A stretch of DNA of 64,000 bases from the NCBI RefSeq assembly GCF_055900595.2, contig NZ_CM148325.1. The stretch is one strand, 5' to 3'. The notes below the pieces were generated by a model. The model did no database searches. It saw nothing but the letters and a program-made list of their open reading frames with translations, and had not been told where the DNA came from. Made by a program: the position numbers and the translations under genes. Each line of letters opens with the position of its first letter. The stretch's first letter is position 1. Positions 47,677-61,455 of the stretch are shown here, in pieces.

Positions 47677-47980
47677 AAAAACACCCCTTCTTATGTTTGC
47701 TGTCGCGCAGGCTGGAAGCCCGAGGTTTTTTGTTAATGTGGCGGCAGAGGTAGCCGGACCTTGTTGATAGTGCGAAATCTGGCACTGAATCGGTTAACTG
47801 TCCAGTCGACGGCTTTTTGTGTGATATCGGTCACATAAATATAGGGGGTAGAGAGGTAATTGACGTGATGTGCATCACAAAATACTTGTGTAAAAAAGCA
47901 ACAAGACGGCGATTTTCGCTAAAAATGGCATTTAAATGTGAGTAATGTCACATTTTTGTTTTGTTGGTTTGTTGAATCTT

Positions 47981-47996
47981 TGTGATCTGAATCACA
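47981..47996. promoter_or_regulatory. consensus CRP site (TGTGA-N6-TCACA) in the mtlA promoter region
   Basis: tgtgatctgaatcaca read directly; further TGTGA/TCACA-containing palindromes at about 47865-47878 and 48022-48037. Confidence 0.65.
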
Positions 47997-48212: not shown

Positions 48213-48575
48213 ATGTTTCTAAACTATTTCGCGTTGGGAGTGCTGATCTTCGTCTTTCTGGTGATTTTTTATGTAATCATCGCGATACATGACATCCCTT
48301 ATCTGATTGCCAAAAAGCGCAATCACCCCCATGCCGACGCTATTCATACGGCGGGCTGGGTGAGCCTGTTTACTCTGCATGTTATCTGGCCGTTCCTGTG
48401 GATCTGGGCGACGCTCTATCAACCGGAGCGTGGCTGGGGTATGCAGTCACATGTTGCGTCGCAGGAGAAAGCGACTGACCCGGAAATCGCCGCACTTTCT
48501 GACCGAATTTCCCGGCTGGAGCATCAACTCGCCGCCGAGAAAAAGACTGACTATTCCACGTTCCCGGAGATCTAA
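48213..48575 (+). CDS. yibI: DUF3302-family small inner membrane protein YibI
   Basis: 120 aa, [45 protein letters not shown]... Confidence 0.85.
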
Positions 48576-48577
48576 AT

Positions 48578-49714
48578 ATGGATCTATTGATTGTTTTAAC
48601 TTACGTGGCGCTGGCGTGGGCGGTCTTTAAAATCTTCCGCATTCCGGTAAATCAGTGGACGCTGGCGACGGCGGCGCTGGGAGGCGTGTTTCTGGTGAGT
48701 GGTTTGATTTTGTTGATGAACTACAACCACCCTTACACTTTTACCGCACAGAAAGCGGTGATTGCTATTCCCATCACGCCACAGGTGACGGGGATCGTGA
48801 CTGAAGTCACTGACAAGAATAATCAGCTCATTCAGAAGGGCGAGGTGCTTTTTAAGCTCGACCCGGTACGTTATCAGGCGCGAGTCGACAGACTTCAGGC
48901 TGACCTGATGACGGCGACGCATAATATAAAGACACTGCGCGCGCAGCTCACTGAAGCGCAAGCCAATACCACCCAGGTTTCAGCGGAGCGTGACCGCTTG
49001 TTTAAAAATTATCAACGTTACCTGAAAGGCAGCCAAGCGGCGGTAAATCCGTTCTCAGAACGTGATATCGACGATGCGCGGCAGAATTTTCTCGCGCAGG
49101 ATGCGCTGGTGAAAGGCTCGGTGGCGGAACAGGCGCAAATCCAGAGCCAGCTCGACAGTATGGTTAACGGTGAGCAGTCGCAGATTGTCAGCTTAAGGGC
49201 GCAGCTTACCGAAGCGAAATATAACCTTGAGCAGACCGTCATTCGCGCGCCGAGCAATGGCTACGTCACTCAGGTGCTGATCCGCCCAGGTACATACGCA
49301 GCTGCCTTGCCGTTGCGTCCGGTAATGGTTTTCATCCCTGAGCAAAAACGGCAAATTGTCGCCCAATTTCGGCAAAACTCGCTGTTACGTCTGAAACCCG
49401 GCGATGATGCGGAAGTGGTGTTTAACGCGCTACCTGGGCAGGTGTTCCACGGCAAACTGACTAGTATTTTACCTGTCGTGCCAGGCGGTTCGTATCAGGC
49501 GCAAGGGGTATTGCAATCATTAACGGTCGTGCCCGGCACGGACGGTGTGCTGGGAACCATTGAACTGGACCCTAACGATGATATCGATGCTTTACCCGAC
49601 GGCATCTACGCCCAGGTGGCAGTTTACTCCGACCATTTCAGCCATGTTTCGGTGATGCGGAAGGTGCTGCTAAGAATGACCAGTTGGATGCATTATCTTT
49701 ATTTGGATCATTGA
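48578..49714 (+). CDS. yibH: HlyD-family (membrane fusion protein-like) inner membrane protein YibH
   Basis: 378 aa, single N-terminal TM then coiled-coil and barrel-sandwich-like regions; starts 3 nt after yibI. Confidence 0.85.
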
Positions 49715-49784
49715 GACTTGTATCACCTGTGTTTTGCGCGAGCCTGAGCCATACTGATATTTTTCCTCGCACAAAGGACTCGGC

Positions 49785-57048: not shown

Positions 57049-57234
57049 GTGAAAAGTGCAGACGTGATCGCCATCCTGAAGCAGCATGGCTGGGAACATA
57101 TTCGAACCCGTGGTAGTCATCATCAGTTCCGCCACCCTGTCCATCCGGGTCTGGTGACGGTTCCGCACCCTAAAAAAGATATTAAGCCCGGTACGCTGGC
57201 GCAAATTGGGCGTCAGGCTGGTTTAACATTTTAA
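57049..57234 (+). CDS. hicA: HicA-family toxin (61 aa), GTG start
   Basis: MKSADVIAILKQHGWEHIRTRGSHHQFRHPVHPGLVTVPHPKKDIKPGTLAQIGRQAGL: HicA-like GSHH...GL(V)TVP(H)PKKD signature; TATAAT at 57025-57030 upstream. Confidence 0.8.
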   Translation: MKSADVIAILKQHGWEHIRTRGSHHQFRHPVHPGLVTVPHPKKDIKPGTLAQIGRQAGLTF

Positions 57235-57250
57235 AATTTCAGGAGGCAAT

Positions 57251-57661
57251 ATGTTTTATCCCGCCTATATCCACAGTGATCCTGACGGCAGCGCCAGCGG
57301 TTTTTTCCCTGATGTTCCAGGCTGTTATTTTGCTGGTGATACGCTGGACAACGCTTTCCAGGATGCGCGAAGTGCACTGGTCGCGCACTTCGAAACCTTA
57401 TGCGAGATGAATGAAGAGTTGCCGCTTCCAGGCTCTGTGGAAACACATCTGGTCCAGCGTGCGCAGGACTTTATTGGCGGGCAATGGTTGCTGGTGGATA
57501 TCAATATGAATCAGTTCGAAGGTCGGGCTGAACGTATCAATATTACGATGCCGAAAAGATTACTGAACAAGATTGATACCTACGTGCGCAATAACCCAGA
57601 CTACGCCAACAGAAGTGCGTTTCTGGCGGAAGCTGCCCGGCGTGTATTGCCGGGCGTTTAA
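57251..57661 (+). CDS. hicB: HicB-family antitoxin (136 aa) with C-terminal ribbon-helix-helix
   Basis: Starts 17 nt after hicA; C-terminal INITMPKRLLNKIDTYVRNNPDYANRSAFLAEAARRVL is RHH/CopG-like. Confidence 0.75.
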   Translation: MFYPAYIHSDPDGSASGFFPDVPGCYFAGDTLDNAFQDARSALVAHFETLCEMNEELPLPGSVETHLVQRAQDFIGGQWLLVDINMNQFEGRAERINITMPKRLLNKIDTYVRNNPDYANRSAFLAEAARRVLPGV

Positions 57662-58041
57662 TCTCGCGTTTCGATGGTGAGCGGGCGGACCAGGCTGTAC
57701 AGCCACAGACCAAAACAAGCGATGGTGCCAATCACCACGGTGAGGAACACACTGACTGACAGGCCTGCAAGCAATCCCGCAGGCAGGGCCAGCAGGCCGT
57801 GGATCACGGTGTCGTTCCATCTCACCTGATCGTAGCCAAACATGCCTAAAACGCCGCAAACCAGACCGTAAATCACCATTGGTGTTCCGAGGCCAATCAG
57901 CAATAAACGGTAGATAATTGAAGGTTTAATACGCTTTATCTGTACTGTGGATGTTTTACTGGGGTTATTCATTAGTTTGGTCAATAGTTCCATTATTTCA
58001 ATATGATAAACCTCGACCTGTTGAAAAGCCAGGTAGCACAC
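57658..58041 (-). CDS. small hydrophobic membrane protein of unknown function (111-127 aa depending on start)
   Basis: Track ORF; two or three predicted TM segments (IIYRLLLIGLGTPMVIYGLVCGVLGMF, GLLALPAGLLAGLSVSVFLTVVIGTIACFGLWLY); 3' end overlaps hicB stop by 4 nt (convergent). Start uncertain. Confidence 0.45.
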   Translation of the reverse strand: MCYLAFQQVEVYHIEIMELLTKLMNNPSKTSTVQIKRIKPSIIYRLLLIGLGTPMVIYGLVCGVLGMFGYDQVRWNDTVIHGLLALPAGLLAGLSVSVFLTVVIGTIACFGLWLYSLVRPLTIETRD

Positions 58042-58154
58042 TTCAGAAAGTATATAAAAAACAATATGTCGTTATATAAATAAGGAAATTGCACTGCATC
58101 ATGGCATTTCATAATATGCGTTAATTGTTCTTTTTTATATTCTCTGAGGGAAAT

Positions 58155-58478
58155 ATGTTCCTGGACTATTTTGCACTGGGAGTGCTTATTTTTGTATTTC
58201 TGGTGATATTCTATGGGATTATTATTTTACATGATATTCCCTACCTGATTGCTAAAAAACGTAATCATCCTCATGCCGACGCCATTCATGTTGCTGGTTG
58301 GGTGAGTCTTTTTACGCTGCATGTTATCTGGCCATTTTTGTGGATTTGGGCCACGCTTTACCGCCCGGAGCGGGGATGGGGAATGCAAAACCATGACTCC
58401 TCCGTTGTGCAACTACAACAGCGTATTGCCGGGCTGGAGAAACAGCTCGCCGACATCAAATCCTCTTCTGCCGAGTAA
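58155..58478 (+). CDS. yiaW: DUF3302-family small inner membrane protein YiaW (paralog of YibI)
   Basis: Start at [46 protein letters not shown]-terminal ~75 aa nearly identical to YibI. Confidence 0.85.
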
Positions 58479-58483
58479 TACTT

Positions 58484-59620
58484 ATGGATTTACTGATTAT
58501 TTTGACCTATGTGGCTTTCGCATGGGCAATGTTTAAGATCTTCAAAATTCCTGTAAATAAATGGACCATTCCCACCGCGGCCCTGGGTGGCATATTTATT
58601 GTCAGCGGTCTAATTCTGTTAATGAACTATAACCATCCGTATACCTTTAAAGCGCAAAAAGCGGTTATTTCTATTCCTGTTGTCCCGCAGGTGACAGGCG
58701 TGGTGATCGAAGTGACGGACAAGAAAAATACGCTGATTAAAAAAGGTGAGGTGCTATTTCGACTGGACCCGACGCGTTATCAGGCGCGGGTGGATCGGCT
58801 GATGGCGGATATCGTTACCGCAGAACATAAACAGCGGGCGTTGGGCGCAGAGTTAGATGAGATGGCGGCGAATACTCAGCAGGCAAAGGCCACGCGGGAT
58901 AAATTCGCTAAAGAGTACCAGCGTTACGCACGCGGCAGCCAGGCGAAAGTAAACCCGTTTTCAGAACGCGATATTGATGTGGCGCGGCAAAATTATCTGG
59001 CGCAGGAAGCCTCCGTAAAGTCATCGGCGGCGGAACAAAAACAGATCCAGAGCCAGCTGGATAGCCTGGTGTTGGGTGAACATTCTCAAATCGCCAGCCT
59101 GAAAGCGCAGCTCGCGGAAGCAAAATATAACCTTGAGCAGACGATAGTGCGTGCGCCGAGCGATGGTTATGTGACCCAAGTGCTGATTCGTCCGGGTACC
59201 TATGCCGCATCGCTGCCGCTACGTCCTGTGATGGTGTTTATACCCGATCAGAAACGACAAATTGTGGCGCAGTTCCGTCAGAACTCCTTGCTGCGACTGG
59301 CTCCCGGCGATGATGCGGAAGTGGTGTTTAATGCTCTGCCAGGTAAGGTATTCAGCGGTAAGCTGGCAGCCATTAGCCCAGCTGTTCCCGGCGGAGCTTA
59401 TCAGTCGACCGGCACCTTACAGACGTTAAACACAGCACCGGGTTCAGATGGCGTTATCGCGACCATTGAACTGGATGAGCACACTGAGTTGAGCGCTTTA
59501 CCAGACGGTATTTACGCCCAGGTGGCGGTTTACTCTGATCATTTCAGCCATGTCTCGGTGATGCGCAAAGTGCTGTTACGCATGACCAGTTGGGTGCATT
59601 ACCTTTATCTCGATCATTAA
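58484..59620 (+). CDS. yiaV: HlyD-family inner membrane protein YiaV (paralog of YibH)
   Basis: 378 aa, collinear with YibH along the full length with high identity. Confidence 0.85.
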
Positions 59621-60591
59621 TCTTCGCTTTCCGCCGCTTGTTCAGGCCGCAGTTGCTGCGACTGAGCAAGCTGGTGGCGAATTTCACGCAGCATTTCATC
59701 CAGCACATACTGGACCCGCCAGGGCTGGTATTCCCGTTTACGGAAGATAGCCACCAGATCCAGCCACCATTCATACGGTTGCTGAAAGCAGGGCACCAGC
59801 GTGCCGTCTTGCAGGTCGCTCTGCACACTTTTGTCTGGCGCAAACACAATCCCCAGGTGATTTCGTGCCAGCTCCAGCGCCGATTGCGTGTTGTCGCAAA
59901 CGTAATTTCCCTTCACGCGATAATCCCGCACCTCTTTACTCCCGGCGACGTTGAAGCGCCAGATATTCGCGTCGTCGATCATCATCGAGTCGATCAAAAT
60001 ACAGGAGTGATGTTCGAGTTCGTCAGGACGGCTAATGGGATGTTTCTCAAGATAGCGCTGACTGGCATAAGCGGTTACGGCATATTGCGTAATAAAACTG
60101 GCAACCAGCGATTCATCTTTTGGTGGAGCATAGCTGATTAAAACATCACAATCATCGGGAAATTCGACACCTTCATAAAAGGCATTACGCTCAAGATTGC
60201 AGGTTTTTAGCGATAAGGTGATATCACCGATATCTTTAATTTTATCGATAACATGTTTGGATAAATAGGTAATTATGCCGGTTGGGGCGTAGATGGTGAC
60301 CCGACCACGTTTCTCATGCTTATAATCTGCAATAAAATTATTAAGTTGCTCGTTTCTGTCCAGCATGTCGTTGATGTACGGTAACAGCGCGGTACCAAAA
60401 GGTGTGAGCATCAGCTGCCGGGTGGTTCGGTCAAAGACTTTTAAACCTACTTTTGATTCAAAATCAGCAAGATATTTGCTGACGTTGGCCTGTGCGAATC
60501 CAAGTACAGTCGCGGCATGGCTGATATTTTCACTGGCAGCGATTACCGAGATAATTTTTAACTCCCGGTACTTAAGTTGTAATTTTGTCAT
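59617..60591 (-). CDS. yiaU: LysR-family transcriptional regulator YiaU
   Basis: 324 aa with N-terminal HTH ([33 protein letters not shown]). Confidence 0.88.
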
Positions 60592-60714: not shown

Positions 60715-61455
60715 ATGTTAATTAACCGCAATATTGTAGCGTTATTTACGTTGCCTTTTATGGCAAGCGCTACTGCTTCTGAATTATCCATTGGTGCTGG
60801 TGCAGCTTATAATGAATCGCCTTATCGTGGTTATAATGAAAATACAAAGGCAATTCCGCTGATTAGTTATGAAGGTGATTCTTTTTATGTTCGTCAGACC
60901 ACGTTAGGTTTTATTCTGTCGCAAAGTGAAAAAAATGAACTTAGCCTGACCGCATCCTGGATGCCGCTGGAATTTGACCCTGCAGATAATGACGATCATG
61001 CCATGCAACAGCTTGATAAGCGTGATAGTACGGCTATGGCGGGGGTTGCCTGGTATCACCACGAGCGTTGGGGAACCGTGAAAGCCTCTGCGGCTGCGGA
61101 CGTTCTGGATAACAGCAACGGCTGGGTGGGGGAGCTATCGGTATTTCACAAAATGCAGATAGGTCGCCTGTCGCTGACACCTGCACTGGGCGTTCTCTAT
61201 TATGACGAGAATTTCAGTGACTATTACTATGGCATTTCAGAGAGTGAGTCCCGTCGTAGCGGTCTGGCAAGTTATTCCGCGCAGGATGCTTGGGTGCCCT
61301 ATGTCAGCCTGACGGCAAAATACCCGATAGGAGAGCACATCGTATTGATGGCGAGTGCCGGATACAGCGAGCTGCCGGAAGAGATTACCGACAGCCCGAT
61401 GATTGATCGTAATGAGAGTTTTACCTTTGTCACCGGCGTGAGCTGGCGTTTTTAA
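60715..61455 (+). CDS. yiaT: MipA/OmpV-family outer membrane protein YiaT
   Basis: 246 aa with signal peptide MLINRNIVALFTLPFMASA and C-terminal ...VTGVSWRF beta-barrel terminus. Confidence 0.88.
   Translation: MLINRNIVALFTLPFMASATASELSIGAGAAYNESPYRGYNENTKAIPLISYEGDSFYVRQTTLGFILSQSEKNELSLTASWMPLEFDPADNDDHAMQQLDKRDSTAMAGVAWYHHERWGTVKASAAADVLDNSNGWVGELSVFHKMQIGRLSLTPALGVLYYDENFSDYYYGISESESRRSGLASYSAQDAWVPYVSLTAKYPIGEHIVLMASAGYSELPEEITDSPMIDRNESFTFVTGVSWRF

Follow-up and report, generated by a model that had tools for sequence, protein, structure and literature searches.

In this study, we examined two related two-gene cassettes, yibI-yibH (yibIH) and yiaW-yiaV (yiaWV), which lie on the same strand of a 64,000 nt stretch of DNA from NCBI RefSeq assembly GCF_055900595.2 (contig NZ_CM148325.1); this whole stretch is referred to as the window. 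Each cassette encodes a small membrane protein with a DUF3302 domain, followed directly by a larger periplasmic adaptor protein, and the same four genes carry these names in the RefSeq annotation of Escherichia coli, in which the small proteins are given as DUF3302 proteins. The genes are as follows.

yibI, 48213-48575, plus strand: DUF3302 small inner-membrane protein of 120 amino acids (aa), assigned from its open reading frame (ORF), Pfam, family alignments and the helices of an AlphaFold2 (AF2) model.
yibH, 48578-49714, plus strand: EmrA/AaeA-type periplasmic adaptor (membrane fusion protein) of 378 aa; the core copy in E. coli.
yiaW, 58155-58478, plus strand: paralogue of yibI, 107 aa from the ATG, with a shorter and divergent but still heptad-like tail.
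yiaV, 58484-59620, plus strand: paralogue of yibH, 378 aa; the accessory copy in E. coli.

It had been predicted from the DNA alone that the two cassettes share one architecture and lie in direct orientation about 10 kb apart. The ORFs are found exactly where they had been placed, with 9,942 bp between the start of yibI and that of yiaW. The small and the large gene are separated by 2 nt in yibI-yibH and by 5 nt in yiaW-yiaV, and because a GGAG sits within the 3' end of yibI, ahead of yibH, translational coupling of yibI and yibH is likely. In a program-made ORF listing yiaW can be extended upstream to a TTG at 58125; the ATG was taken as the start since the alignment with YibI begins at residue 1 and the RefSeq annotation agrees. 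YibI matches DUF3302 (Pfam PF11742) with E = 1e-40 (residues 3-78 against positions 1-76 of the 77 in the model), and the Pfam domains found in the large protein are CusB_dom_1, HlyD_D23 and Biotin_lipoyl_2. Compared with the best complete E. coli genomes, the window is 97-98% identical in yibIH and 99.9% identical in yiaWV.

We show here that a conserved, self-contained module of two genes is present in two copies, yibIH and yiaWV, which diverged long ago. That the pairs are true paralogues, as the original prediction had it, is borne out by strong protein alignments: in pairwise alignment the large proteins YibH and YiaV are collinear and 77% identical across all 378 residues without a single gap (E = 0), and the small proteins YibI and YiaW are 73% identical over 113 aa (E = 1e-60). 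The small proteins had been described as nearly identical in their N-terminal parts and divergent at the C-terminus, and indeed 72 of the first 78 residues, which make up the DUF3302 domain, are identical (92%), while the tails are unlike in length and sequence, yet each carries a short heptad-like helix that is typical of the family. At the DNA level, yibH and yiaV are 70% identical in register and BLASTN aligns the cassettes in three blocks of 74-78% identity. The differences between yibH and yiaV number 83, 47 and 208 at codon positions 1, 2 and 3, and the proportion of synonymous differences (pS) is 0.74, and thus saturated, at a nonsynonymous divergence (dN) of 0.18; both copies of the large gene have therefore been under strong purifying selection. 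Along the gene pS stays at 0.70-0.83, falling mildly, to 0.53, only over the final 42 codons, and this uniformly high level rules out a recent duplication or recent gene conversion. The duplication is an ancient one. The GC content at third codon positions (GC3) is 0.61-0.63 in yibIH against 0.48-0.55 in yiaWV. Close relatives of YiaV (at least 83% identity) were found only in E. coli, in Citrobacter amalonaticus and in a few metagenome sequences. Among 103 other full-length homologues, of which those with source names all come from Enterobacterales, 99 are nearer to YibH (mean identity 82.8%, against 76.2% for YiaV), and in a neighbour-joining tree the YiaV sequences form a clade basal to the YibH clade of Enterobacterales. 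Taken together, these relationships point to yibIH as the ancestral-type copy and to yiaWV as an old paralogue or xenologue.

The cassettes had also been put forward as direct repeats through which the intervening yibF-selAB-yiaY-aldB segment might be deleted or duplicated. Their common orientation, their distance of 9.9 kb and the occurrence of mosaic YibH/YiaV proteins in metagenome assemblies (P0278 and P0283) would fit such a role, or an origin by recent segmental duplication; however, we consider either highly improbable. The two longest in-register runs of identity between the cassettes measure 29 and 20 nt, and with a divergence of 30% such short identical runs make a very poor substrate for homologous recombination. 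The saturated pS, the unequal GC3 and the basal position of the YiaV clade also speak against this idea. When the whole 11.6-kb interval was used as a query and matches were sampled from top to bottom of the ranked list of 5,425 complete E. coli genomes, no loss of the intervening segment was seen in this sample, and even the lowest-ranked chromosomal matches still hold selA, selB, yiaY and aldB. The two strains without yiaWV that were inspected, S1-THA-01-A and UTI89, retain yibIH and the intervening genes selAB-aldB, and the loss in these two is a separate insertion or deletion of a yiaW-V-U-T block (see below) rather than a product of recombination between the repeats. The cassettes thus show neither the high identity and long identical runs nor, in the genomes sampled, the rearrangement products of a recombinogenic repeat or a recent segmental duplication. 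As for the mosaics, P0278 switches from YibH to YiaV and back to YibH, P0283 conversely from YiaV to YibH and back to YiaV, and P0285 is mosaic as well. Because P0278 and P0283 are confined to single short contigs (about 1.2-1.3 kb), are opposite in pattern and have their second switch point near a 20-nt run that is identical in both paralogues, the mosaic proteins are probably assembly chimeras and not recombinants. The rearrangement idea can be dropped.

The pairing of the two genes is not peculiar to E. coli. The DUF3302 family comprises 783 clusters at 50% identity, and a scan of one genome per species gave more than 587 confirmed DUF3302 loci, of which 80 were kept; these come from Alpha- and Gammaproteobacteria, together with single members from each of Desulfobacterota, Verrucomicrobiota and Nitrospinota. 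In 78 of the 80 loci a YibH-like gene lies immediately downstream on the same strand (called at a phmmer bit score above 150; E-values range from 1e-63 to 1e-128 in the 53 pairs listed), and the gap is between -4 and +16 nt in 72 of these 78, larger overlaps stemming from over-extended ORF calls. Allowing for an over-extended ORF, one further locus (L008) is paired too (79/80), and the remaining locus ends with its contig. Two more divergent DUF3302 members that were looked up separately have the same pair. The adaptors fall into two size classes, of approximately 315-345 aa and 372-391 aa, which differ mainly in the length of the hairpin.

The original prediction had noted that no ABC or RND transporter adjoins either cassette, and this holds for the window, where no inner-membrane transporter gene (ABC, RND, MFS or FUSC) is linked to them; at the surveyed loci no such linkage is conserved either. 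Unbiased clustering of the five genes on either side in the 78 paired loci gave no neighbour family common across genera, and synteny was seen only within a genus (Aeromonas, Shewanella), so that a conserved third gene or pump as part of the module was ruled out. Multi-helix membrane proteins encoded next to the pair are few, sporadic and heterogeneous (CstA, SulP, bile-acid symporter-like and DMT proteins). A pump-less neighbourhood is therefore a property of the family and not an accident of E. coli. SulP was considered as a partner and rejected: it is found only after a truncated variant (P0195) and after two Pseudomonas cassettes (L035 and L077), and nowhere else in the 80 loci. The truncated variant (L088, 6001-8070) is a protein of 105 aa in which DUF3302 is joined straight to the C-terminal helix motif of the adaptor, the rest of the adaptor being missing, and its gene is followed by those for a SulP transporter and a PPK2.

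The DUF3302 domain consists of a first helix, a loop with the motif R36-x-H38-P39-x-x-D42 and a Trp-rich second helix (W49, W59, P60, W63, W65), followed by a Y-R-P-x-R-G-W-G turn, a variable linker and a short amphipathic, heptad-like C-terminal helix. R36, H38 and D42 are invariant in 31 aligned pairs, and H38 also in a broader family alignment of 41 sequences. By the positive-inside rule, the KKR-rich loop of YibI would be cytoplasmic and its tail periplasmic. No solved DUF3302 structure was found in the PDB, where the only matches are designed coiled coils that align to the tail. The large protein had been predicted to be HlyD-like with a single transmembrane segment; the first part stands and the second is probably wrong, since YibH has two conserved N-terminal hydrophobic helices, centred at about residues 10-13 and 36-39 (AF2 helices 1-19 and 29-50), where EmrA and AaeA have a single inner-membrane anchor. 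Pfam, the AF2 model and Foldseek agree on lipoyl and beta-barrel domains flanking an alpha-hairpin, the helices of which span residues ~97-152 and ~161-218 (about 55 residues per arm) in the model, and a conserved C-terminal helix covers residues 355-371. Across the 80 orthologue pairs, conservation of the adaptor is highest in its two membrane helices, in the NYNHPYT motif after them and in the C-terminal RKxLLRMxSW helix, and the hairpin varies most. The mean pairwise distance is 0.22 for the DUF3302 domain and 0.48 for the adaptor, and the two distance matrices correlate across loci (r = 0.66). An AF2 model of the fused pair built from 31 paired sequences has a pLDDT (predicted local distance difference test score) of 76.6 and a predicted TM-score (pTM) of 0.52, the periplasmic domains being mostly above a pLDDT of 85.

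Among solved structures, EmrA of the EmrAB-TolC system (PDB 8zal, 8zar and 4tko) is the closest to YibH, both by fold (8zal/8zar; Foldseek E = 1e-19, target-normalized TM-score 0.71, root-mean-square deviation 4.3-5.1 Å at only 19-20% identity) and by sequence (phmmer E = 1.7e-11), followed in the Foldseek ranking by MacA, AcrA and MexA. YibH and EmrA have in common a membrane anchor, lipoyl and beta-barrel domains and a long hairpin, and a further likeness is that EmrA is without a membrane-proximal domain. They differ in that YibH has a second N-terminal helix, an obligatory DUF3302 neighbour and no adjoining MFS pump gene. The closest parallel in gene order is provided by the E. coli AaeX-AaeA-AaeB and YdhI-YdhJ-YdhK systems, in which, as in yibIH, the gene for a small two-helix protein lies directly upstream of the adaptor gene. 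YibH is 25% identical to AaeA (E = 2e-16) and has a similar basic C-terminal helix; it aligns with both AaeA and YdhJ over the whole periplasmic part and shares with them a P-[YW]-T motif after the anchor. However, YibH has an extra N-terminal hydrophobic helix and about 42 more residues in the hairpin, and, while aaeA and ydhJ are followed by a FUSC pump gene, no FUSC or other pump gene follows yibH. The small proteins are also unlike: DUF3302 as a relative of AaeX/DUF1656 was ruled out because neither BLASTP (E = 2.3) nor hhalign (probability 0.1%) detected any similarity. With a YibI that does not resemble AaeX and no FUSC gene downstream, yibIH is not an AaeXAB-type operon. MdtN of MdtNOP, which is among the top NCBIfam matches of YibH (E ~1e-32), and the RND/ABC adaptors AcrA, MacA and MexA are built from the same domain families; they differ from yibIH and yiaWV, which have no pump or outer-membrane factor gene in cis. 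The generic RND_mfp model TIGR01730 is barely passed by YibH (99.9 bits against a cut-off of 94.9) and failed by YiaV (88.1).

How might such a pair work? The reading that we favour, tentatively and well aware that it may be wrong, is that the two proteins form an inner-membrane complex which acts as an efflux-type adaptor together with partners encoded elsewhere. YibI and YibH (or YiaW and YiaV) would assemble in a fixed stoichiometry in the inner membrane and, as in other adaptors, would form a hairpin funnel directed towards an outer-membrane channel such as TolC. In this view the complex would serve as the adaptor of an export or efflux route, much as AaeX-AaeA or EmrA do, and the inner-membrane transporter, if there is any, would be encoded elsewhere in the genome. 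The adjacency of the genes, the correlated distances, the conservation of the membrane parts, the EmrA-like fold and the kinship with AaeA and YdhJ are all in agreement with this proposal. Several observations weigh against it. No transporter gene is conserved beside the module in any lineage, which is atypical for efflux adaptors. The hairpin varies in length among members (forms of ~317 aa to ~380 aa), and as a constant length would be expected with a single essential and fixed outer-membrane docking partner, this speaks against such a partner. The pTM of the fused-pair model is low, and the published phenotypes (urine fitness, adhesion, IS1 insertion under macrophage selection and transformation efficiency; see below) are not efflux-specific. 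In addition, the NCBIfam models for the known adaptors are all far below their cut-offs: YibH and YiaV score 113.5 and 112.0 bits with TIGR00998 (cut-off 390.8), 110.9 and 112.2 with the MdtN model (376), 75.1 and 63.8 with the AaeA model (400) and 57.1 and 52.5 with the EmrA model (563). The original prediction had concluded from the missing pump genes that the proteins are not classical efflux adaptors; the absence itself is correct, but the exclusion was an inference only, and the nearest predicted fold is that of EmrA.

The stand-alone pairing also fits a second explanation, according to which no pump is needed. Here the DUF3302 helices and the N-terminal helices of the adaptor would themselves form a conduit through the inner membrane, with four helices per pair and possibly 24 in a hexamer, and the pair would be a complete exporter or channel to which at most an outer-membrane duct is added. 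We regard this as unlikely, though worth keeping in mind, since it would account both for the constant stand-alone pairing without a conserved neighbouring transporter in 80 loci and for the finding that the membrane segments and the motifs adjoining them are the best conserved parts, which is unlike a simple anchor. The far stronger conservation of DUF3302 than of the adaptor, the conserved polar residues in or near the membrane (R36, H38 and D42) and the extra N-terminal helix of YibH, which is missing from AaeA and YdhJ, also agree with it. However, no energy-coupling domain or known transporter fold was detectable in the proteins, and a putative polar cluster formed by H26, D27, H45 and H56 of YibI and D2 of YibH is replaced in alphaproteobacterial members, so that it is not universally required. 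In these members the five residues are replaced together (by Y/W-G, G, G and A/V), which may reflect a co-varying cluster or one event in the lineage. It is similarly doubtful that DUF3302 and the two-helix adaptor N-terminus represent a new class of pump-less, envelope-spanning conduits in which an adaptor-type funnel has its base closed by a ring of its own small conserved helices and not by an ABC, RND, MFS or FUSC transporter.

Within E. coli the two copies differ in distribution. The yibIH query is covered to at least 80% in 5,385 of 5,426 complete genomes (~99%), and the cassette is therefore core, whereas yiaWV is found at an identity of at least 95% in approximately 3,800 genomes (~70%) and is accessory; in 1,435 genomes the yiaWV query merely cross-matches yibH. 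In S1-THA-01-A and UTI89 the whole yiaW-yiaV-yiaU-yiaT block is missing, and the genes usually found beyond yiaT come straight after aldB. C. amalonaticus has the same block in the same order. yiaWV is carried in a yiaW-V-U-T block that has been seen present or absent as a unit, the further genes of which are the following.

yiaU, 59617-60591, minus strand: LysR-type regulator (LpsR in the literature), convergent with yiaV; missing along with yiaWV from the two strains inspected.
yiaT, 60715-61455, plus strand: MipA/OmpV-family outer-membrane protein; the fourth gene of the block.

The stop codons of yiaV and yiaU overlap by 4 bp (59617-59620), and the two genes have been listed as a candidate pair for overlapping transcripts, a so-called excludon (PMC12288877).

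The original prediction had assigned no function to these proteins, and none is given in the literature that we searched, which holds no direct study of them and mentions DUF3302 only incidentally. In the TCDB, yiaV is listed as an uncharacterised adaptor, and yibH has served as a neutral site for integration. In UTI89, yibI is induced in urine and its deletion results in a competitive index of 0.33 in urine and in reduced adhesion, a phenotype that is notable because this strain is without yiaWV. For the second cassette, an identical IS1 insertion at nt 263 of the 324 nt of yiaW has been found in three of six macrophage-evolved lines (PMC3861542), and, according to a report cited in PMC12844161, deletion of yiaW raises the efficiency of Ca2+-mediated transformation. 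In the window, the insertion point corresponds to position ~58417, just upstream of yiaV, and an IS1 element there would cut off only the tail of YiaW. In a natural isolate (NZ_CP080080.1; match H43) an IS1B element splits yiaW, and nt 263 may be an IS1 hotspot.

These envelope- or host-related phenotypes suggest a third explanation, namely that the pair has a non-transport role in the envelope, as a periplasm-spanning scaffold or as a stress-related structure affecting barrier properties. The urine and adhesion defects of a strain with no yiaWV as a back-up, the recurrent insertion under macrophage selection and the reported effect on transformation would fit such a role, as would the fact that yiaWV is accompanied by genes for an outer-membrane protein (yiaT) and for a regulator linked to lipopolysaccharide (yiaU). 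On balance, however, we think it improbable that this is the function of the module. The fold is that of efflux adaptors, and the few phenotypes on record are in part indirect and were not complemented. When a yiaW::aph insertion was engineered at the IS1 site, phagosome maturation, followed as LAMP1 association, was unchanged, this being the only assay reported for that insertion. Control of yiaWV by YiaU was considered and rejected: the study of the YiaU/LpsR regulon names yiaT and the waa genes and does not mention yiaWV (PMC9068703).

A role as cargo of mobile elements, with an anti-phage or superinfection-exclusion function, is suggested by the cassette in Yersinia (L091 and L092; 4307-8582). 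There the pair is followed by a YdgH/BhsA-like gene and is bordered by a phage integrase/excisionase pair on one side and RecT-type genes on the other, and the copy appears to be inside a prophage-like element. This is an isolated case, however, and the remaining evidence makes such a role extremely unlikely. PADLOC gives only two marginal coiled-coil matches for YibH (E ~0.005), and only three of 2.9 million IMG/VR contigs match. Only two phage records match, both from unannotated Campylobacter phages (MG065691.1 and MG065686.1; H48 and H49), and as their yibI sequence is 98.7% identical to the E. coli protein, it is most likely E. coli contamination or the result of a chimeric assembly. Plasmid matches are mostly to non-mobilizable chromids and megaplasmids or to mislabelled chromosomes, and plasmid mobility of the cassette was likewise rejected.

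The surroundings of the two cassettes vary among strains. An Rhs element separates yibH from yibF in many E. coli strains, K-12 among them, and the spacing of the cassettes is strain-dependent for this reason; the window has no Rhs element there, and no terminator-like site was found in its yibH-yibF junction (49715-49784, 70 nt). Between aldB and yiaW, the stretch 57049-58041 holds a hicA/hicB toxin-antitoxin pair (hicB ORF at 57251-57661) and, on the minus strand, a small membrane-protein ORF (57658-58041) that is shorter in the RefSeq annotation. This stretch varies among E. coli and is missing in K-12-like strains, and other strains have a Fic-family gene between yiaY and aldB. Upstream of yibI lies the following group of sites.

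Four CRP-consensus sites, 47820-47996, no strand assigned: TGTGA-N6-TCACA, three perfect and one with a single mismatch, in the divergent mtlA-yibI intergenic region.

These sites are spaced by 44, 73 and 44 bp, and the only perfect matches to TGTGA-N6-TCACA in the window are those in this region. They are presumably sites of the mtl promoter; it is possible that yibIH shares this catabolite control through the putative CRP sites.

The four genes have long been annotated, among the E. coli genes that are still uncharacterised, and finding them is not in itself news. What we consider worth knowing is that they represent a widespread, stand-alone module of a DUF3302 protein and an EmrA/AaeA-like adaptor, found mostly in Proteobacteria, and that the yibIH/yiaWV system is a variant, as yet uncharacterised, on the theme of periplasmic adaptors. 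Since yibIH is the only copy in B2-type strains such as UTI89, these offer a clean genetic background. If the transporter is indeed encoded elsewhere in the genome, the pair would be a missing piece of the efflux inventory; if, on the other hand, the pair works alone, it would represent a new design of envelope conduit.

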